A stretch of 64,000 bases of DNA, from positions 6,998-70,997 of IMG/VR virus record IMGVR_UViG_3300017565_000020. The stretch is one strand, 5' to 3'. Below, piece by piece: positions 2,203 through 16,825 of this stretch. The translations under genes were made by a program, and so were the position numbers. Every line of letters starts with the position of its first letter. Position 1 is the first letter of the stretch. This DNA is from a virus. Its lineage: Duplodnaviria; Caudoviricetes. The notes below the pieces were generated by a model that did not search any database, was not told the origin of the DNA, and was given only the letters and a program-made list of their open reading frames with translations.

Positions 2203-3151
2203 TTGGAAATAAGGTTTTTAATAAATGTTTACTATTGGCGTGTTTAGCCCAGCCTTTGTAGCTGTCTATACTTGCCCTTGGTTTTCGGGCTTTCACCGCC
2301 CGGGCAAAGTTTTTCTTGATAGATTTCCTGATCAGTACCCGGTTGTGGAAGTGCTTATATCCAACCACGTCAATACCTCTGTCTTCCACTTTAAATACCT
2401 GGTAATTACCTTTTACCAGTAAGTGGAGCTTATCGTATAAATAGGCTTGTATTTCTGCCCTTAAAGCATGCAAATAAGCTTTGCTGTTATGGAGAATTAC
2501 CAGGTCGTCTGCATATCTTACATAATACTTAACCCTTTTCACTTCCTTTAGCCAGTGGTCAAAGTAGCTGAGGTAAAAATTGGCGAGATATTGGCTCAGG
2601 TAGTTACCGATAGGCAATCCGGGGGCGCTGTCAATTATTTCGTCGAGCAGCCATAACAGATCCTTATCCTTTATTATTCGGCGTAATAATTGTTTTATAA
2701 TCGCATGGTCTACCGATGGGTAAAATTTCGTGATATCCAGTTTCAGGCAATACGTAGTTTCTGGTATATTTTTCAGGTATTTCCGAACCTTTTTGGATAA
2801 GGCATGTATGCCTCGTTTTTTAATACAGCTATAGGTATCGGCCGTAAATGTGGCTACAAATATTCGCTCCAGAATATTCATCACCGCATGGTGAAGAATA
2901 CGGTCCGGGAAGAAAGGGAGACGGTAGATTATGCGTTCTTTAGGTTCGTGGATTTTAAAAATTGTATATGGTGAGGTTTTATAGGTTTTATCCCTGAGCA
3001 TATTGTACAATGCCATCAGGTATTCGTCCGGATGCTGGCGAAACTCAATAACACCGTATTGCTTTGCCTTTCCGAGGGCCGCAATTTCTGCGGTCCTTTC
3101 AAGGTTATAGATGTTATAAACTTGTTCGTATAAATTATTTTTCCGTTTCAT
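2189..3151 (-). CDS. DGR-type reverse transcriptase
   Basis: RIIYRLPFFPDRILHHA, LKLDITKFYPS, GLPIGNYLSQYLAN and YADD motifs; 320 aa with no maturase or endonuclease domain; adjacent TR/VR repeats. Confidence 0.95.
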   Translation of the reverse strand: MKRKNNLYEQVYNIYNLERTAEIAALGKAKQYGVIEFRQHPDEYLMALYNMLRDKTYKTSPYTIFKIHEPKERIIYRLPFFPDRILHHAVMNILERIFVATFTADTYSCIKKRGIHALSKKVRKYLKNIPETTYCLKLDITKFYPSVDHAIIKQLLRRIIKDKDLLWLLDEIIDSAPGLPIGNYLSQYLANFYLSYFDHWLKEVKRVKYYVRYADDLVILHNSKAYLHALRAEIQAYLYDKLHLLVKGNYQVFKVEDRGIDVVGYKHFHNRVLIRKSIKKNFARAVKARKPRASIDSYKGWAKHANSKHLLKTLFPNESI

Positions 3152-3234
3152 GTACTTATAAAGCCTCTGCTTTAGCAGGTCTTCTTCTCACGATGTATCG
3201 TAATACCAAAGCCCTAAAAGCGCCATGTAATTTT

Positions 3235-3249
3235 TTGCCATGTTGGCAA
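3235..3249 (-). promoter_or_regulatory. Short hairpin in the TR-RT spacer (TTGCCA-3nt-TGGCAA)
   Basis: Perfect 6-bp inverted repeat between TR and the RT start; DGR spacer RNA is known to carry functional structure. Confidence 0.5.
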
Positions 3250-3279
3250 GGTCTGTACTGCCATTAGTTTTTAAAGCAT

Positions 3280-3352
3280 GGTGGGAGCTGACATTCGCAT
3301 TCGTATTGTCGTAGTTGTAGTCGTTGTACGCGAGACCGGACGGCGACGAAGC
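3280..3352 (-). repeat. DGR template repeat (TR), 73 bp
   Basis: Minus strand GCTTCGTCGCCGTCCGGTCTCGCG TAC AAC GAC TAC AAC TAC GAC AAT ACG AAT GCG AAT GTC AGC TCC CAC C; intergenic and rich in AAC/AAT codons. Confidence 0.96.
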
Positions 3353-3378
3353 TACAGCCCAAGCAGTACACCACCCTT

Positions 3379-3765
3379 TTATTTTGGAATCACAAGGATA
3401 TCCTTGTATTTTTCAAAGTGTTGCTTCACCACGTATTTTAATATCTCCAGCGTTGGAAAAACGCGGCGGGAGCCGACATGCGCAGTCGTATCGCCGAAGA
3501 GGTAGACGCTGCACGCGAGACCGGACGGCGACGAAGCAGACATATCCCACCAAGCATAGTATTTACGTTGGTTCCAGTCTGTCCAATCAATTTCCTTGTC
3601 TTCACCTTTCCACGCCGCTTCGGATATTACATCCAGCTCATAACCGGATATTACATTTTGTGCATGTTTCTCCGGTAAGCCGGTTACTACAGGTTTAATG
3701 GTTGGGTCATAGCCGAGGAACTTTGCTGCGGCTTCAAAACTTTCTAAATGCAGATACTTTTTCAT
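3379..3765 (-). CDS. DGR target protein 1 (128 aa)
   Basis: Contains VR1 encoding ASSPSGLACSVYLFGDTTAHVGSR, preceded by KYYAWW. Confidence 0.9.
   Translation of the reverse strand: MKKYLHLESFEAAAKFLGYDPTIKPVVTGLPEKHAQNVISGYELDVISEAAWKGEDKEIDWTDWNQRKYYAWWDMSASSPSGLACSVYLFGDTTAHVGSRRVFPTLEILKYVVKQHFEKYKDILVIPK
3465..3537 (-). repeat. DGR variable repeat VR1
   Basis: 73-bp match to TR with 12 mismatches, all opposite TR adenines. Confidence 0.96.
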
Positions 3766-3776
3766 TTTTGTGTTGG

Positions 3777-4274
3777 TTAATTATTGTAATAGATATAGGT
3801 TGACCAGTCGTCAATGGCTACTTCTGCAAAGTGTTTGGTCTGGTCTGCATCACAAACACAGAGGCGGGAGCCGACATCCGCATCCGTACCGCCGAAGCTG
3901 AAGACGTAGTACGCGAGACCGGACGGCGACGAAGTGCGGTTAAACCACGGATAGTACCAGTAATCTTCTTTGGTGAGCGCCTTACCGCCTCTTATAGCGT
4001 ATGCCCAAACTTCTAATGCTTTACCGGATTTTTCTCCTGGGCTGTCACGTTCTGTTCGCCAGTTAAACTGTTCTAATGTTTCGCCCTTAAAATCCAGCGC
4101 ATCCTGGAATGTCTTAATATCCTTATAATTAAAGGATGTTTTTTTAATAGCAGCTACCTGTTCTTTGGTTAGCTCAATTTCTACGGGCTTGCCGTTTACT
4201 TCGATAGTGGTTTTCATAACTCTTGTTGTTATTTGGTGGTTAAAATCCTTTCTCTGCTTTGGAACCTTTACCAT
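3777..4274 (-). CDS. DGR target protein 2 (about 159-165 aa)
   Basis: Contains VR2 encoding SSPSGLAYYVFSFGGTDADVGSR, preceded by WYYPWF; paralogous to target 1. Confidence 0.9.
   Translation of the reverse strand: MVKVPKQRKDFNHQITTRVMKTTIEVNGKPVEIELTKEQVAAIKKTSFNYKDIKTFQDALDFKGETLEQFNWRTERDSPGEKSGKALEVWAYAIRGGKALTKEDYWYYPWFNRTSSPSGLAYYVFSFGGTDADVGSRLCVCDADQTKHFAEVAIDDWSTYIYYNN
3863..3934 (-). repeat. DGR variable repeat VR2
   Basis: 72-bp match to TR with 12 mismatches, all opposite TR adenines. Confidence 0.96.
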
Positions 4275-4467
4275 AGGATTGGCTGTTCCATAATGGTGAG
4301 TTGCGTTTGAGAAACGGTTTTAAATAGTCACGTTGAGCAAGACTTACAACAGATTCATCTACGCGTAATATCCTTGCAACCTGGCTGATGTTTTTATTAG
4401 GATATTTTTTTAAAGTGCTTATAATGAGGTTCATTGTTGAACGAGTTTTAATTTTGATATGTGACAT
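4240..4467 (-). CDS. Small hypothetical protein, possible HTH
   Basis: NISQVARILRVDESVVS resembles an HTH; in operon. Confidence 0.45.
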   Translation of the reverse strand: MSHIKIKTRSTMNLIISTLKKYPNKNISQVARILRVDESVVSLAQRDYLKPFLKRNSPLWNSQSYGKGSKAEKGF

Positions 4468-4619
4468 GGAAACCTGTATCCTTTTGGATGTTCAAGCAGA
4501 TAGACATCTCCATGCACGCTAATTATTTTTGCTTTTAAACCTGGTTGGGCGTAAACATTCTTTTTGTTGCAGTAACTGGCTATGGTTTCGGTTATGTAGC
4601 AATGTTTTTCTGATTTCAC
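4431..4619 (-). CDS. Small hypothetical protein
   Basis: ORF tightly packed in the leftward operon. Confidence 0.5.
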   Translation of the reverse strand: MKSEKHCYITETIASYCNKKNVYAQPGLKAKIISVHGDVYLLEHPKGYRFPCHISKLKLVQQ

Positions 4620-5741
4620 CTATAGCAGTGTTGAAAACAAGATATTGACATCTTCACGTGGAGCACGCAAGGCAAAATCCATCATGCCGGCATAGTCGCC
4701 CAAATCGTTATCTTTTATTGCTTGTTCAAAACTCTCTGGCGAAAAATGGTCTTTTAAGAATGTTGTAATTGCAGTTGAATTTTTACCAGACCTTGCACCG
4801 GCTTTGTTTAATTCTTCCACCTCTGGAAAAGTTATCTCACTGGCCTGTTCTGTATTAGGCTTGTCTTCAGTTTCTTTGTCTGTTTTTTTATTTTCACTTT
4901 GTATGCTCACATTTTCGGACAAAACTTTATCGCTTTTCTTCAATGAATTCATAGCTGCCATAGTATTGCCGGTTGGCTTTGTTTTAGCGGTTTCTATTTT
5001 TTCTTCTTTTTCCCTCCTGAATGTATCGTAAACCGTTGTGGTACCTTCTTTGATGGCATTTTTTAATCCTGATAAATAAACTACCTTTTCATTGTCTATT
5101 TCATTTATCGAGGATATTCCAAGGTGATTTAATAACTCTTGCTCTGAGACGCCCAAGGTTTTGTAATATGCAATTGCATTGTTACGTTTCTTTTCGATGT
5201 CAAGGGTTTGGCCAATGGCAATTTGTTTAACCTCATCCACTATTTTACGGGTTATTGCCTTTGGTATAACGGCAAGAACTACATTTCTAAAAGCTATAGC
5301 CTGGGCAGCATTGGTGGTAACTACCTGCATATCTTCGGAAAATGTTTGCCCTGTTTTAGTAGTAATTCTCCTATCCACTTCTTTGCTTACAAACAAGTTA
5401 GATTCGAGGTCATGACAAACTCCCTGTACGGTAATCTTTTTACCATCATTCCCAACGGTTCGGGTTCCAATTCTTAGATTGCCCCAACAACTGGCTATAA
5501 TTTCGGCAAAGCGAACTGAAAGCCCCTCTATTAATATCGCATCTTCACCTCTGCCACGCTGGAGGGCATAGAAGCAATCTTCTGCTGTTTCTATGTCTAT
5601 GGTGGCCATAGCTTTTATTTTACTGAGTACCGTAGGCAGGTCTCGTGGCCAGCGCTTAGCAATGTCTACCTGACTTTCCATTTCGGCACGTATTACATGC
5701 TGTAAGGAATCATTTGGGTTTAAGATTTGTAAATCGTTCAT
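4620..5741 (-). CDS. Putative ssDNA-annealing or recombination protein
   Basis: Long ORF directly downstream of the YqaJ-like exonuclease, the usual SSAP position; acidic C-terminal region. Confidence 0.5.
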   Translation of the reverse strand: MNDLQILNPNDSLQHVIRAEMESQVDIAKRWPRDLPTVLSKIKAMATIDIETAEDCFYALQRGRGEDAILIEGLSVRFAEIIASCWGNLRIGTRTVGNDGKKITVQGVCHDLESNLFVSKEVDRRITTKTGQTFSEDMQVVTTNAAQAIAFRNVVLAVIPKAITRKIVDEVKQIAIGQTLDIEKKRNNAIAYYKTLGVSEQELLNHLGISSINEIDNEKVVYLSGLKNAIKEGTTTVYDTFRREKEEKIETAKTKPTGNTMAAMNSLKKSDKVLSENVSIQSENKKTDKETEDKPNTEQASEITFPEVEELNKAGARSGKNSTAITTFLKDHFSPESFEQAIKDNDLGDYAGMMDFALRAPREDVNILFSTLL

Positions 5742-6898: not shown

Positions 6899-7108
6899 TT
6901 AGCTTATATGGCTCAATAATTCGCCCAAAGCTTTATGGACATTTGACAGATGAGCAATATCTGTGGATGTGAAGCACTTATCGGGCTCGTTTCCCTTCTC
7001 GCATAAATTAAGTTTCTTTATTGTCTTATTTTCTAAAACAGCGGTCATGACACCCGAACCTTCAAAATCCCATTTGATTGTTTCGGTTAAAATGCTTTCA
7101 ATTTCCAT
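6899..7108 (-). CDS. Hypothetical protein
   Basis: ORF in operon. Confidence 0.55.
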   Translation of the reverse strand: MEIESILTETIKWDFEGSGVMTAVLENKTIKKLNLCEKGNEPDKCFTSTDIAHLSNVHKALGELLSHIS

Positions 7109-13169: not shown

Positions 13170-13586
13170 TTATTTTCTCCCATAAACCAACAATCCTGAA
13201 ACACGCTTTTCACTATTTGTCTGACCTTTATACCCTGTTATTTTGCAGAAATCTTTATGCGTATAACTGCTATATCCTTTCGGCATCACAAGCTCAAAAC
13301 TTATCTTATTATCCGTCAAAAACTTCTCAATTTGGCGACCTATTTCGTTGTTGGCGCCGACCCGTTTAGCCATGCCGTTACCGCCTTTGTGCCATGTTTT
13401 TTTTACCTTATGCCCGGCTTCGAGTACTACGGTCAAGTCATAATTTTTGTGATACCCCAAAAGCTCGTTAAACAGGTCAAAAAGGCTGTATTGGTTTAAC
13501 ATAAGCTCTTTAAATTCCGGTAGCCATAGTGCGAAACCTGATTTGTCTACGTCCGGGTCAATGCCGATGAATAATTTCTCTTTCAT
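13170..13586 (-). CDS. RuvC-like Holliday junction resolvase
   Basis: FIGIDPDVDKSGFA, VVLEAG, NSEKRVSGLL. Confidence 0.75.
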   Translation of the reverse strand: MKEKLFIGIDPDVDKSGFALWLPEFKELMLNQYSLFDLFNELLGYHKNYDLTVVLEAGHKVKKTWHKGGNGMAKRVGANNEIGRQIEKFLTDNKISFELVMPKGYSSYTHKDFCKITGYKGQTNSEKRVSGLLVYGRK

Positions 13587-14419
13587 AACCTAATAGCGTT
13601 TAAAGGTGAAGGTATCCTGCTAATCAGGTTATGGCTTATATGCGTGTAAATGGACGTAGTTTTAACGCTATTGTGCCCTGCAAGTCGCTGTATCAGATTA
13701 ATGTCCGTTCCGGCCTCTAACATGTGCGTAAAGGCGCAATGGCGCATTAAATGTGTGTATACACGCTTATTTATGCCTGCTTTTTGAGCTAACTGTTTAA
13801 TGACCTGCCCAACGCTACGTTCTGAGTATTGAGGCTCATTATGCCAGCCGTTCAATACATATTCCCGGCTGTGGTAAGCGTGCCAGTATTTCTCCAGCAA
13901 AGGCACAATATCTGGCGTAAGCATCACATGCCTGTCTTTTTTGCCTTTGGCGGCTATAATGTTAATAATCATCCGGCTGCGGTCTATGTGCTGCCATTTA
14001 AGGTTTATAAGCTCCGAAACCCGCAATCCGGCAGAATACAATAAGGCCAGTATTACTTTATGCTTTAAGTTCTCGCACACGTTGAACATCGCTTGAATTT
14101 CCGCTTGCGATAGCACAATAGGCAACTTCTTGTCGCTTCTGGGATATTCAATGTACTTAAATTTTAACGGCTGTTTACCCGTTAACGAGTAGAATAGCTT
14201 AACAGCGGATATACGATGTTTACGGCCGTTAATGGATTTAGCTTGTAGTAACCATTCTTTAATCTGCCTTTCATTAATTTCTGATGGCTTTGTGGCTATT
14301 CCGTTAAAGTGGTTTAAAAAACAACGGACTTGCGATACATAATTACTTATAGTACGTTCTCCGTAGTTTTTTAACCGTAAATCTTCGGAATATAAATCCA
14401 GGTACTTTCCGATATTCAT
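13583..14419 (-). CDS. IntI-like tyrosine recombinase (integron-integrase-like, no obvious IntI-specific insertion)
   Basis: NYGERTISNY N-terminal SAM-like region; GLRVSE (R), AAKGKKDR (K), HLMRH, LAGH, TTSIYTH (Y); C-terminal IPSPL as in IntI. Confidence 0.9.
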   Translation of the reverse strand: MNIGKYLDLYSEDLRLKNYGERTISNYVSQVRCFLNHFNGIATKPSEINERQIKEWLLQAKSINGRKHRISAVKLFYSLTGKQPLKFKYIEYPRSDKKLPIVLSQAEIQAMFNVCENLKHKVILALLYSAGLRVSELINLKWQHIDRSRMIINIIAAKGKKDRHVMLTPDIVPLLEKYWHAYHSREYVLNGWHNEPQYSERSVGQVIKQLAQKAGINKRVYTHLMRHCAFTHMLEAGTDINLIQRLAGHNSVKTTSIYTHISHNLISRIPSPLNAIRL

Positions 14420-14439
14420 AACGTATTTTGTTAATTATT

Positions 14440-14481
14440 AGTTAGTTACAGGGGGGTGAATACATATATTAGTTGGCGGCA
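14440..14481 (+). other. attI-like site with core GTT at 14472-14474
   Basis: Lies between the integrase start and cassette 1; ...TACATATATTAGTTGGCGGCA with no long palindrome. Confidence 0.65.
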
Positions 14482-14484
14482 ATA

Positions 14485-15060
14485 CTACCTCCGCTTAATT
14501 TCAACGGTTATTATCGTGTCATTGTGACAAGCTCCATGACAGACAAGCATTATTTCTACTATCTCAAATCCACGCTTCTTGCCAATGCCTGTGCTATCCC
14601 AACAAAATGAAATAACAGTACCGCCAACTTTTACTATTCGCCTTATTTCATCTTTGCATTTTGCCCAATATTCAGCCCTACCAGCAGTTCCTTTTTGCTT
14701 TGGCGTGTATCGCCTCAAACATTGTTCGGTTGAATAAGGTGGGTCAAAAAAGCAGCCATCTAATGAATTATCAGGCAAAGATTTTAGGAACTCTAAAGCA
14801 TCCATTTGATGTTTTGCCCCACGTCCTTCAATGTCGTTTGTTATTTCAGCAGGTGAATTTTCGCCAGCAAAAGGGTCTGCCCACGTTCCAAAATGGTATT
14901 TAGAAATAAGTCCTGCAATTGGCTTTACTGTGAATGTCCAAATAGAAGGCATTGCCCAAACCCTACTTAATTCAACCGTACTGCCGCCAACACTGCATTG
15001 CTGCAATGCTGGCTGACGTACATCACTCATCGGTATATTTTCAAATAAACTGTTTTGCAT
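14485..15060 (-). CDS. Cassette 1: small amino-methyltransferase-like protein
   Basis: WADPFAG (motif I-like) and FFDPPYS (motif IV); start codon lies inside attC-like site 1. Confidence 0.78.
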   Translation of the reverse strand: MQNSLFENIPMSDVRQPALQQCSVGGSTVELSRVWAMPSIWTFTVKPIAGLISKYHFGTWADPFAGENSPAEITNDIEGRGAKHQMDALEFLKSLPDNSLDGCFFDPPYSTEQCLRRYTPKQKGTAGRAEYWAKCKDEIRRIVKVGGTVISFCWDSTGIGKKRGFEIVEIMLVCHGACHNDTIITVEIKRR

Positions 15061-15120
15061 AATTCAACTTTTTGTTTTTCAAATTCCAGCACTGACAGCA
15101 ATGCTTCAACGTTATGTGCC
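14982..15120 (+). other. attC-like site 1
   Basis: TGCCGCCAAC - GCATTGCTGCAATGCTGG ... CCAGCACTGACAGCAATGC - GTTATGTGCC. Confidence 0.85.
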
Positions 15121-15121
15121 A

Positions 15122-15367
15122 TTAAGCAGACGCCTCACGAATACCAACGACAACAGGGTTTTTAGGAGTTCCGTCCTCAAAATAGCCGTCGTGTTCTATT
15201 TCTGCAATCTTTCTATCAGTCCAATTTCCTTTGCAATAATTCCACAACTCATTAAACTTTTCTAATCCTAATCCGTTTTTTGCCCAAAAGATATTTTCGT
15301 TTTGCAAAGGCTCACAGGTAAATGACTGTGGACGGCTCAACCCTGTTAATTTGAAATCTGTTTTCAT
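15122..15367 (-). CDS. Cassette 2: hypothetical protein (81 aa from ATG 15367)
   Basis: ORF between att sites; C-terminal EIEHDGYFEDGTPKNPVVVGIRE recalls a ligase OB-like motif. Confidence 0.65.
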   Translation of the reverse strand: MKTDFKLTGLSRPQSFTCEPLQNENIFWAKNGLGLEKFNELWNYCKGNWTDRKIAEIEHDGYFEDGTPKNPVVVGIREASA

Positions 15368-15382
15368 CGTTCTAAATTTAAC

Positions 15383-15484
15383 GGCACATAACAAGGGTTT
15401 TGCGTAATAGCCCTATCAAGTGTCGTGGTTAATTTTAAGTTTATACTAAGGGCTACTACGCAAAGCCCCGATATGTTACAGGCA
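15383..15484 (+). other. attC-like site 2
   Basis: GGCACATAAC - GGGTTTTGCGTAATAGCCCT ... AGGGCTACTACGCAAAGCCC - GTTACAGGCA. Confidence 0.88.
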
Positions 15485-15487
15485 ATA

Positions 15488-16381
15488 CTACGACCACTCC
15501 GCAAAAGACAGAATGTGTGCTATAATATCAACTGTCCACGCATCGCCTATACAATCATACGCTTCATCGTAAGACAATGTTTTTGTGTAACCAATAGGTA
15601 GTGTTTGTAGTTTTTCAATTTCAGTTTGTGAAAGGTAGCGATACACACCATCTTTCAATAAATAGTTTTCGTTCCATTTTCGGTGTCCGTTTGCAGTTAA
15701 GCAACCGCTTTTAGGATATGGATTTACTCTTGTGTACCCATTTTCAACCGATTTTTTACCGCTTTCAGAAGTTAGCCATTTTACTCTACATTCGTCAGCT
15801 AAATCTCCAGAGTAATCAAAAACATCAGCAGTTGTAATTCCTTTGTCTTTCGGTTGCTTAATTCCGGGAATATTTGTCCAATAGTATCTCGGTCTATTCT
15901 GAGCAGAAACTAACTTACTATTTATTGAAATAGGTTTAACTCCTAATGTTTCTGTAATTATTTCGGTGGCTTTTTTGTTGCCGTGTGTGTTTTCAAGTAA
16001 AAAGTATTTTGGTTTTACTTCTTCAAGTAATCTAATATACTCCCAAAACAATTTACTTTCAGCGTGTTCAAGTCCTTCTTGGTTTTTATTCAATCTTGAA
16101 ATCCCTTTACAAGGAGAGCCACCTATCAATAAATCAATTTTTGGTAAGTCGCTACCTTTCACATTCAAAACACTACCTAATTGTATTGTGTTTGGGTAGT
16201 TGCTTTGTGTACATTTAATTGCGTGTGGTTTAATCTCACTTGCAAAATATTGTCTTACTTCATACCCAGCACGGTCTAAGGCAATCTGTCCGCAGGAAAT
16301 ACCATCAAATAAAGAAAGTACTGCCTGTAACACGGGTTTTGCGTCATTGGGGCTTTGGTTTTTCAAATAAAGTTCTGTCAT
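15488..16381 (-). CDS. Cassette 3: C5 cytosine DNA methyltransferase
   Basis: VLSLFDGISCG (I), GGSPCKG (IV), FLLENT (VI), QNRPRYYW (VIII), LQTLP and GDAW (IX/X); start codon lies inside attC-like site 3. Confidence 0.9.
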   Translation of the reverse strand: MTELYLKNQSPNDAKPVLQAVLSLFDGISCGQIALDRAGYEVRQYFASEIKPHAIKCTQSNYPNTIQLGSVLNVKGSDLPKIDLLIGGSPCKGISRLNKNQEGLEHAESKLFWEYIRLLEEVKPKYFLLENTHGNKKATEIITETLGVKPISINSKLVSAQNRPRYYWTNIPGIKQPKDKGITTADVFDYSGDLADECRVKWLTSESGKKSVENGYTRVNPYPKSGCLTANGHRKWNENYLLKDGVYRYLSQTEIEKLQTLPIGYTKTLSYDEAYDCIGDAWTVDIIAHILSFAEWS

Positions 16382-16459
16382 ATATTCAAATTTTGTTTTT
16401 CAAATGGGCTTTAGTGCTGGAAATCCCCAACGAACGCAAAGCCCGAAACCGTTGAGCGT
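16322..16459 (+). other. attC-like site 3
   Basis: TGCCTGTAAC - CGGGTTTTGCGTCATTGGGG ... CCCCAACGAACGCAAAGCCCG - GTTGAGCGT. Confidence 0.87.
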
Positions 16460-16673
16460 ATTGTCTCATAACATCTGACACCCTGGTTCTGGGGGCGCTT
16501 CCACCACCGCTAATTCCAGAATCTATAGGGGGATTTTTCAACCCTTTCTGTTTTGCAATGGAATCTTCTGTTAACTGCTTCTTTGGTTCTTTTTTTATCC
16601 GTTCTGAATACGGACTATTCCCACTTAACGCCATCATTGTGGCTAATTGTAACATTGCTAATTTTTTACTCAT
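16386..16673 (-). CDS. Hypothetical protein whose C-terminus reads through attC-like site 3
   Basis: ATG at 16673; the last ~25 codons are encoded by the att palindrome. Confidence 0.5.
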   Translation of the reverse strand: MSKKLAMLQLATMMALSGNSPYSERIKKEPKKQLTEDSIAKQKGLKNPPIDSGISGGGSAPRTRVSDVMRQYAQRFRALRSLGISSTKAHLKNKI

Positions 16674-16697
16674 ATTTTTAATTGCCTATAACCGTTC

Positions 16698-16723
16698 ACA
16701 AAGCCGGGAGCGCTAACCCGGCT
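16698..16723. repeat. 22-bp direct repeat copy 2, here forming a full hairpin AGCCGGG-8nt-CCCGGCT
   Basis: Sequence inspection. Confidence 0.8.
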
Positions 16724-16825
16724 GTATTTTACCTAAACCTAACGTATAAGAACCATTTTGCGCTTTTGGGGGTATCTCTTTACCTCTGGTGGTTATCCGA
16801 TAGTGTAATGCGTATTGTTTACGTG

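Follow-up and report, generated by a model that had tools for sequence, protein, structure and literature searches.

Integrons are the textbook gene-capture device of bacteria. They are defined by an integrase (IntI) with an extra insert, by a recombination site (attC) downstream of each captured gene, and by expression from a cassette promoter (Pc). With them, and with several other described systems, we compare an array of three gene cassettes that lies beside a tyrosine recombinase gene in a 64,000-nucleotide stretch of phage DNA (IMG/VR virus record IMGVR_UViG_3300017565_000020, positions 6,998 to 70,997; Caudoviricetes). This whole stretch is called the window below.

Mobile modules of plasmids known as pdif or Xer modules are flanked by 28-bp XerC-XerD sites (11-6-11) in alternating orientation, and integration of the CTX phage uses a folded single-stranded attP as Xer substrate. 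In T4-type phages, Arbiol et al. in 2010 reportedly described promoter/stem-loop 'mobile regulatory cassettes' that are thought to move by homologous recombination. Other relevant material already in print consists of fragments. For example, a cluster of attC sites lacking an integron integrase (CALIN) was described in Polaribacter phage P12002L, with two methyltransferase (MTase) genes, attC sites 'in divergent directions', and no recombinase (Qi et al. 2023, PMC9892861). Its attC1 is the one site without confirmed IntI1 recombination junctions (PMC9892861). Within the literature covered, which was incomplete, no description was found of a dedicated recombinase, a docking site, reversed polarity, or site-encoded leaders in such arrays.

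The locus in the window is probably a phage-borne gene-cassette platform that functions like an integron and is built as the mirror image of one. A Xer-like recombinase gene is preceded by a non-palindromic docking site, and all cassettes upstream of it point towards the recombinase gene. Each cassette opens with its own hairpin site, in the sense of the open reading frame (ORF) C-N5-stem-loop-stem-N1-GTT plus about 10 nt. Its other end, directly behind the stop codon, is a stretch of about 10-14 nt that is complementary in reverse to the sequence following the GTT of the same cassette. Excision as a circle would then close a long R-box helix. Exchange would take place at the AAC core on the 5' arm, with the same polarity as the docking site, which corresponds to the bottom-strand geometry of integrons. 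Lying in front of its gene, the site carries an A-rich initiation region, and about 45% of sites also contain the ATG and the first 15-25 codons; in those cases an N-terminal leader would be translated from the arm, core and flank. The features of the locus are collected in Table 1.

Table 1. Features of the cassette array and its surroundings (window coordinates)
Feature	Position	Strand	Basis
Xer-like tyrosine recombinase, 278 aa, presumed cassette integrase	13583..14419	-	Pfam, NCBIfam, homologues
attI-like half-site without hairpin	14420..14474	-	conserved motif, breakpoint in related arrays
Cassette 1, headed by site 1	14473..15111	-	terminal inverted repeats 14472-85/14978-91
Site 1, 125 nt	14989..15113	-	R1 102.6 bits (in training set), E 2e-20 / 1e-19 shared between sites 1 and 3; fold
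Cassette 2, headed by site 2	15112..15475	-	terminal inverted repeats 15111-25/15378-92
Site 2, 88 nt, 26-nt loop, 23 pairs	15390..15477	-	R1 60.1 bits, E 1e-10, outside training set
Cassette 3, headed by site 3	15476..16451	-	terminal inverted repeats 15474-89/16317-32
Site 3, 125 nt	16329..16453	-	R1 106.2 bits (in training set)
Possible old fourth unit	16386..16800	-	repeat families D2, D15 and reading of the sequence; status uncertain

Cassette boundaries and the direction of the array

The array occupies window positions 14472-16453, where the attI-like half-site next to the recombinase gene is followed by the three cassettes. All three cassette ORFs are on the minus strand and point in the same direction as the recombinase gene. 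The ORF of cassette 1 (14485-15060) encodes a 191-aa N6/N4-type DNA MTase (phrog_11619, 8.9e-39) with a DPPY motif, and that of cassette 3 (15488-16381) encodes a 297-aa C5 cytosine DNA MTase (Dcm), in which the Pfam DNA_methylase match (2.7e-34) begins at residue 21. Cassette 2 carries an ORF (ATG 15367, stop 15122) for a protein of 81-90 aa to which homology assigns no function; it has no match in Pfam, PHROG or NCBIfam, and the closest Atlas clusters are viral hypothetical proteins.

Imperfect palindromes delimit these units. On the plus strand all three read AAC-N1-stem...stem-N5-GTT, with cores at AAC 14989-14991 and GTT 15111-15113 (site 1), AAC 15390-15392 and GTT 15475-15477 (site 2), and AAC 16329-16331 and GTT 16451-16453 (site 3). 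In the sense of the ORFs the same sites read xxx(T)AAC, 5 nt, stem, loop, stem, 1 nt, GTT(A)xxx. The stem consists of two helices of about 8 bp each with a small bulge.

The sequences at the two ends of each cassette are matched to one another. In the window, each GTT is followed by 14-16 nt whose reverse complement directly precedes the next AAC (repeats I4, I11 and I15), and the stop codons (14485-87, 15122-24 and 15488-90) overlap the outer 1-4 nt of these cassette-specific inverted repeats. Related arrays were collected from IMG/VR with an alignment of 13 recombinase homologues, which gave 71 loci (0.8 Mb, both strands scanned); a search of IMG/VR with the single recombinase protein gave no loci. 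In 87 cassettes of independent IMG/VR loci, complementarity between the 10 nt after GTT and the 10 nt that lead up to the next AAC amounts to 7.6 of 10 positions, versus 3.7/10 in random pairs and 3.8/10 between the two flanks of one site. Because of this terminal complementarity, an excised circle would complete a long R-box helix.

The flanking inverted repeats are symmetric, so the direction in which a cassette faces can only be read from arrays that differ by recent events. Such arrays were found at four loci, L008, L009, L010 and L011, that encode an identical recombinase protein (P0039) and carry different cassette arrays. They have a common backbone downstream, and their shared segments are 98.9-100% identical. 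The array breakpoints among them, five with high identity, all lie at TAAC/ (the slash marks the breakpoint), on the 5' side of a hairpin in the ORF sense. An MTase cassette present in both L008 (5597-6417) and L010 (5865-6685) is 99% identical. It opens with C/GTATG and the 5' arm, and its ATG lies in the loop. In L008 the cassette abuts the docking site with no hairpin between them, whereas in L010 it is followed by another hairpin. Two more cassettes, specific to L010, are inserted at AAC/. Since the breakpoints fall at the 5' core, a cassette consists of a hairpin site and the ORF that follows. An ORF moves without the hairpin downstream of it, and the canonical arrangement of an ORF followed by its attC is therefore rejected. 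Judged from these comparisons, the cassette layout is the mirror image of that of an integron cassette.

The two ends of the array also differ. The end near the recombinase is a half-site and the far end is a full hairpin. In the ORF sense the docking site of the window reads AAC (14474-14472)-TAAT-ATATGTATTC, followed by 52 nt up to the recombinase ATG. The motif, a variable flank followed by TAAC, TAYT and ATATGTA (14474-14456 in the window), is kept in the window and in loci L003, L004 and L006. In 45 of 63 IMG/VR loci an exact AAC-N4-ATATG is found at a distance of 51-53 nt upstream of the recombinase start, and approximately 61 of the 63 have it if one or two changes are allowed; the recombinases of the IMG/VR loci with this motif are only 45-75% identical to that of the window. 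The docking site is itself a breakpoint in L008-L011 (xxxTAAC/TATTATATGTACGC). Many IMG/VR contigs stop at the docking site, only 55-210 nt ahead of the recombinase start (L098-L101, L107, L111, L118, L119, L127, L129, L133, L140, L147, L152, L157 and L162), as would be expected if assemblies break where the array varies within the population.

Several properties of integrons are found here. A tyrosine recombinase gene lies beside a non-palindromic docking site comparable to attI, and promoter-poor single-gene cassettes are separated by imperfect palindromes with AAC...GTT cores at which exchange occurs, with breakpoints resolved to 4 nt. As in integrons, the cassette ends complete an R box, and site types are common to many cassettes. 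The docking site, the recombinase gene and the cleaved arm have the polarity of the integron bottom strand, with cassettes, AAC, spacer, L box and sense-oriented recombinase gene following one another from 5' to 3', and only the ORFs are flipped. In contrast to the integron arrangement of attC behind the ORF and reading from Pc, the site heads the ORF and often contains its start, all ORFs face the recombinase, into whose gene the array reads, and no Pc-type layout is present. The carriers also differ, being lytic-looking phages.

An initial sequence-only reading of the window had proposed that the plus strand corresponds to the canonical top strand, that all cassette ORFs are antisense to it and co-oriented with the recombinase gene and the early operon, and that each att site belongs to the ORF behind it, which inverts the canonical layout. 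The ORF map agrees with the stated orientation of the genes, the junctions at the 5' core in near-identical arrays together with the attI-like half-site uphold the strand assignment, and the L008-L011 breakpoints bear out the inverted layout. That reading had also named the extrahelical bases as a test of which strand is the top strand, and this part fared less well. In integrons attC has an unpaired central spacer, forming a central bubble, and two extrahelical bases. In contrast, the R and L boxes of the phage sites are separated by a 5-nt spacer on the cleaved-side arm and a 1-nt spacer on the other, with one more 1-nt bulge, and the complementarity of the R box extends to about 10-14 bp versus 7. 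The extra bases are on the arm opposite to that in canonical attC, which taken alone would make the minus strand the top strand; the junctions and the half-site overrule it. The spacer asymmetry is the reverse of that of attC, so the extrahelical-base criterion does not transfer to these sites. We dropped the analogy to attC as a means of calling the top strand because it conflicts with the junction data.

Hairpin sites, start codons and predicted leader peptides

A plain scan for hairpins (AAC...GTT plus a stem) was too permissive, with more than 80 matches per strand, and a covariance model was used instead. The model, termed R1, was built from an alignment of 24 long sites from nine loci. 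In this alignment, compensatory changes are present at 13 of the 16 pairs and 89% of cells pair versus 63% in shuffles, with none of 500 shuffles reaching the real value. The covariation score is 0.62, while slid partners reach at most 0.15. In the window R1 reaches significance at exactly three places, each on the minus strand (E values in Table 1).

The sites fall into two loop classes, one with short loops of 9-35 nt and a commoner long class in which sites are about 123-127 nt. The long-class loop is approximately 70 nt, opens with ATTTGAAAAAC, and often contains an ATG. Among 38 distinct sites, the ORF-sense strand forms the more stable fold in 27 (Wilcoxon p=9e-5), and G.T pairs number 72 in this strand versus 45 in the other. 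This bias is consistent with folding of the ORF-sense single strand, which may be the form that serves as substrate.

In the window, the loop of site 1 holds the ATG at 15060 and another in-frame ATG at 15030, and the ATG at 16381 falls in the loop of site 3. The arm, core and flank of these sites encode the peptides QPALQQCSVGGS and SPNDAKPVLQAV. Further potential starts are also in-site, namely a GTG at codon 17 of Dcm and a TTG at codon 19 of the 191-aa MTase. Pfam and PHROG homology begins at residue 21 of Dcm and residue 31 of the 191-aa MTase, so every plausible start (ATG, GTG or TTG) of both genes is located within a site. The start of cassette 2 (ATG 15367) is 22 nt outside site 2. 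Translation from the in-loop ATGs is a probable, predicted property of cassettes 1 and 3.

Comparison with other loci indicates that site interiors are shared between unrelated genes. Site 3 has an interior 91% identical to L004:2271-2408 and almost the same as L009:5316-5440, with the similarity running exactly from AAC to GTT. This interior, with its ATG and 17 codons, heads three unrelated genes, encoding the C5-MTase in the window, an N6/N4 MTase in L004, and an HNH endonuclease in L009. The three leaders read MTEL(Y/D/N)LKN(Q/E)SPNDAK(P/T)VL and the sequences diverge afterwards. The L004 homologue of the HNH gene has a different leader that derives from a different site. All differences between copies of the site-3-type leader are non-synonymous, which fits a peptide that is set by the DNA site and not by protein function. 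Site 2 shares 93% identity with L006:3271-3381; the match begins at AAC, passes GTT and reaches the ATG, and the ORF that follows is a different one. The C5-MTase cassette of phage LR745206 has 76% DNA identity to cassette 3, and its ATG lies outside a short-loop site.

Across the independent sites, 55 of 122 (about 45%) have an in-site ATG with a frame open into the gene. For 26 of these 55 there is no other in-frame ATG within 30 codons behind GTT, and in 17 another in-frame ATG occurs within 10 codons. Phase 1, in which TAA or TAG is read at the core, is depleted (3/55). At one long-loop site (L006:5737-5859) the loop ATG opens a frame of 23 codons that stops at a TAG in the 3' core, and the ATG of the gene follows 40 nt on; at some sites, therefore, the loop ATG yields no more than a short upstream ORF or goes unused.

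The claims first made for the starts and stops in the window hold. Coordinates and peptides agree with ATGs 15060 and 16381 lying in att loops and with leaders encoded by the site, repeat families D1, D3 and D6 represent the A-rich initiation block proposed to be common to the loops of sites 1 and 3, and the overlap of the stops with the outer edges of the inverted repeats fits their placement 1-4 nt inside the opposite core. The proposal that the att site doubles as a portable translation-initiation module gains support from the identical arrangement of one interior, an ATG and 17 codons before Dcm, N6/N4 MTase and HNH genes.

The recombinase and related arrays in other genomes

The recombinase contains a Phage_integrase domain (PF00589, 2.6e-34) and an N-terminal SAM-like domain (PF13495, 2.3e-07), which places it in the tyrosine recombinase superfamily. 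It scores highest with the models for XerA, XerD and XerC, and its size and domain make-up are like theirs. However, the scores are below the model cut-offs (NCBIfam XerA_Arch, 202 bits versus 220; XerD, 160 versus 330; XerC, 159 versus 335), and the protein is not a Xer equivalog by these models. The integron integrase models also stay far below their cut-offs, with TIGR02249 at 162 bits versus a cut-off of 265, matched in two stretches, and PRK15417 at 101 versus 435. When aligned with VchIntIA (2a3v), query residues 178-200 span chain residues 180-244, so that the IntI insert of about 40 residues is absent. This extra insert of approximately 35-40 residues in the catalytic domain has been described as essential for integron function (PMC8138268). 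An identification of the recombinase as IntI was ruled out on these grounds, the missing insert and IntI models far under their cut-offs. The system works like an integron but lacks two of its defining features, namely the IntI insert and an attC behind the ORF. The recombinase presumably catalyses the exchange of cassettes.

There are 3651 homologues of the recombinase at E<=1e-30. The best 120 of these are 73-100% identical, 269-282 aa in length, and almost all metagenomic. GenBank phages contain no close homologue, the best match being 36% identical. Species-representative bacterial genomes have distant relatives only, with a best full-length match of 55% identity; a bacterial match of 71% is partial and lies on a 2-kb contig of a metagenome-assembled genome (MAG).

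In the 71 IMG/VR loci, R1 has 147 matches. The recombinase strand carries 143, all of them upstream of the recombinase. Both cores could be located in 122 matches, every one of which is upstream and none downstream. The arrays reach 15 or more sites (L158). Every locus examined with upstream sequence (L003, L004, L006 and L008-L012) shows co-oriented small ORFs and MTases with hairpins between them. The cargo of the relatives includes many N6_N4 and C5 MTases, HNH, BubE and DUF4406 proteins, and small uncharacterized proteins. One cassette (L012:7687-8298) encodes a protein of the Gad2 family (PF26128, an anti-Gabija family). Taken together, this cargo has the character of counter-defence. The sole locus with opposite-strand sites is L165 (2388-4025), where four such sites are downstream of a recombinase match truncated to residues 1-154. 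An inversion or a misassembly may account for this arrangement.

Sites that match the model also occur beside recombinases of 33-46% identity in genomes of Bacteroidota (L018 6750-6889, L021 4030-4169, L047 11561-16224 and L023 11348-16180). The genomes with sites are those of Chryseobacterium and Aureispira, the Marivirga tractuosa chromosome, and a Cytophagales MAG. In Chryseobacterium and Aureispira the site is upstream of the recombinase, whereas in Marivirga and the Cytophagales MAG the layout differs, with sites that are on the opposite strand and downstream of the recombinase.

The uncultured 635-kb phage LR745206 (L001) carries at least five cassettes with sites of the same family at 2424-5235, encoding Dcm, a Dam-like MTase and small ORFs. 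The array ends with ...TAAC/TTATG, where a helicase-like gene begins. The loop TCGTTTTAATG is common to the short-loop sites of this phage and to P12002L. A scan of LR745206 with the recombinase protein and R1 gave no match, and is uninformative because it also missed a site of the training set.

Evidence from sequencing runs was taken from Logan contigs; the runs labelled 'RNA?' are probably DNA. Contigs from unrelated wastewater and activated-sludge runs cover 14978-16453, that is, the sites and cassettes, and do not cover this phage's recombinase gene or backbone; the uncovered parts in runs X7 and X11 are not evidence of absence. A wastewater contig of 953 nt matches 15475-16414 at 99%. 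The summed depth of run contigs is several-fold higher in the site interiors than in the ORFs, which would be expected where a small number of site types heads many cassettes. Contig joints at 15131/15374 and 16346/16431 have sides of 19-24 nt beside inverted repeats and were not used.

The resemblance of these arrays to other described systems is partial. They have in common with the Xer systems (XerC/D and archaeal XerA) the best model scores, the size and domains of the recombinase, and the precedent of a folded single-strand substrate in CTX phage. They differ from them in that the phage sites are hairpins of 45-140 nt rather than a 28-bp dif, and in that the presumed outcome is cassette exchange rather than dimer resolution. 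Unlike pdif modules, the junctions in the window are hairpins, the 3' junction has a 1-nt spacer, and there is no 11-6-11 site there. The cassettes of T4-type phages are similar in their small early genes, their repeated stem-loops with expression signals, and their shuffling between phages, but are without a dedicated recombinase, a docking site or core-precise junctions. In the P12002L CALIN, attC1, which is the true member of the site family, and the other hairpins between the MTase genes show the AAC-N4/5-stem...stem-N1-GTT design, and DNA methyltransferases are likewise the cargo. In contrast, the array in the window is not 'orphan', since the phage has a dedicated recombinase, not of the IntI type, together with a docking site, and these fix the polarity.

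Competing readings and genome context

Some observations weigh against an inverted cassette platform. The tetranucleotide TAAC is common to all junctions, and the cut is placed only within 4 nt. Similarity also breaks at the GTT core, as between site 3 and L004 and at the loose ends at 16328; a single crossover at AAC is then insufficient, and a second exchange mechanism or another route of cassette making is needed. LR745206 and P12002L carry arrays of the same family, and no recombinase homologue was detected in either (tblastn, E<=1e-30). The bias of folding towards the ORF-sense strand could equally reflect a role of the hairpin in mRNA and not in single-stranded DNA. Finally, the rate of open frames at in-site ATGs, 45%, compares with 33% in random coding-backbone windows. 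This statistic is not discriminating and was not used as support, and the use of in-site ATGs thus rests on individual cases.

If the arrays had the canonical integron polarity, each ORF would have its own attC behind it, crossover would occur at the 3' G/TT, and the leader would come from the preceding cassette. The break between site 3 and L004 at GTT fits this arrangement, as do the extra bases on the 5' arm in the ORF sense, which by analogy to attC make the ORF strand the top strand. However, the 99% identical MTase cassette abuts the docking site in L008 and a different hairpin in L010, all five high-identity breakpoints are at the 5' AAC, the half-site is at the recombinase end with a full hairpin at the far end, and the similarity between site 2 and L006 runs from AAC through GTT into the leader. 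Canonical polarity is for these reasons highly improbable. The hairpins might instead be RNA or regulatory elements, or repeats for homologous recombination of the T4 type, with the recombinase serving dimer resolution, lysogeny or another task. The better folding of the ORF-sense strand with its use of G.T pairs, the enclosure of start codons and A-rich leaders by the hairpins, and the two arrays without a detected recombinase homologue would all be accommodated. This explanation is nevertheless unlikely, as the docking site shares only TAAC with the hairpins, which is too short for homologous exchange, and the breakpoints are always at one core rather than along the shared 60-125 nt. In addition, the cassette-specific terminal inverted repeats suit a circular intermediate, and the arrays are strictly upstream of the recombinase family (122/122). 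A regulatory role in mRNA may coexist with recombination. A further reading accepts the cassette system and holds the in-loop ATGs to be idle, with translation beginning at a GTG, TTG or ATG at or behind the 3' arm and the leaders untranslated. In its favour, loops 1 and 3 are alike in DNA with a 1-nt offset in frame, the frame of the loop ATG at L006:5737-5859 stops in the core, site-3-type leaders differ only non-synonymously, and 17 of 55 sites have another in-frame ATG close by. In opposition, the sole other start of Dcm before motif I is the in-site GTG at codon 17, the 191-aa MTase is homologous from residue 31 with its next methionine at residue 37, 26 of 55 sites offer no ATG within 30 codons behind GTT, and phase 1 is depleted. 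Idle ATGs are accordingly doubtful, though less so than purely regulatory hairpins.

The inverted platform with its site-borne leaders would have a likely use, with its role inferred from the cargo, in the rapid exchange of anti-restriction and other counter-defence genes among phages of Bacteroidota. We consider it slightly more probable than the opposite that a large family of Bacteroidota phages has its own gene-capture system, evolved from or parallel to integrons, that combines a minimal Xer-like recombinase without the IntI domain with a 5' site acting as a portable start module (an A-rich leader, an ATG, and a tag of 15-25 residues fused to unrelated proteins), and by which anti-restriction MTases and other counter-defence genes are traded ready to express. 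If confirmed, the system would widen the range of integron-type systems and give phages a dedicated route for the exchange of counter-defence genes. Chromosomal integrons of bacteria have been reported to carry defence cassettes (bioRxiv 10.1101/2024.07.02.601686), and such a route would be their counterpart in phages. The system would also be a natural case of a recombination site translated within many unrelated proteins, and would explain the 'orphan' or 'divergent' attC calls that integron-finding tools make in such phages.

The virus record is complete (70,997 bp, with direct terminal repeats), and the window is a part of it. The early operon runs leftward on the minus strand at approximately 10.8-19.8 kb, and the structural operon runs rightward. 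The common orientation of the genes suggests that the array is transcribed within the early operon into the recombinase gene. A gene for a RuvC-like Holliday-junction resolvase (13170-13586, minus strand; phrog_1770, 3.8e-15) overlaps the recombinase stop by 4 nt. A functional link between this resolvase and the resolution of recombination intermediates is possible. The gene after the recombinase varies in other loci, where a DEAD helicase, DUF1064 or a 128-aa ORF is found.

At the other side of the array, the possible old fourth unit includes a 95-aa ORF (16386-16673) whose frame passes through site 3, crossing its 5' arm and its loop, and terminates 5 nt short of the Dcm ATG. This ORF is preceded by remnants of a decayed site, which gives no match to R1; a 3'-arm remnant is located at approximately 16745-16775, and its core is now CTT. 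A GC-rich terminator-like hairpin (approximately 16700-16725) also precedes the ORF. This decayed unit is possibly the far end of the array.

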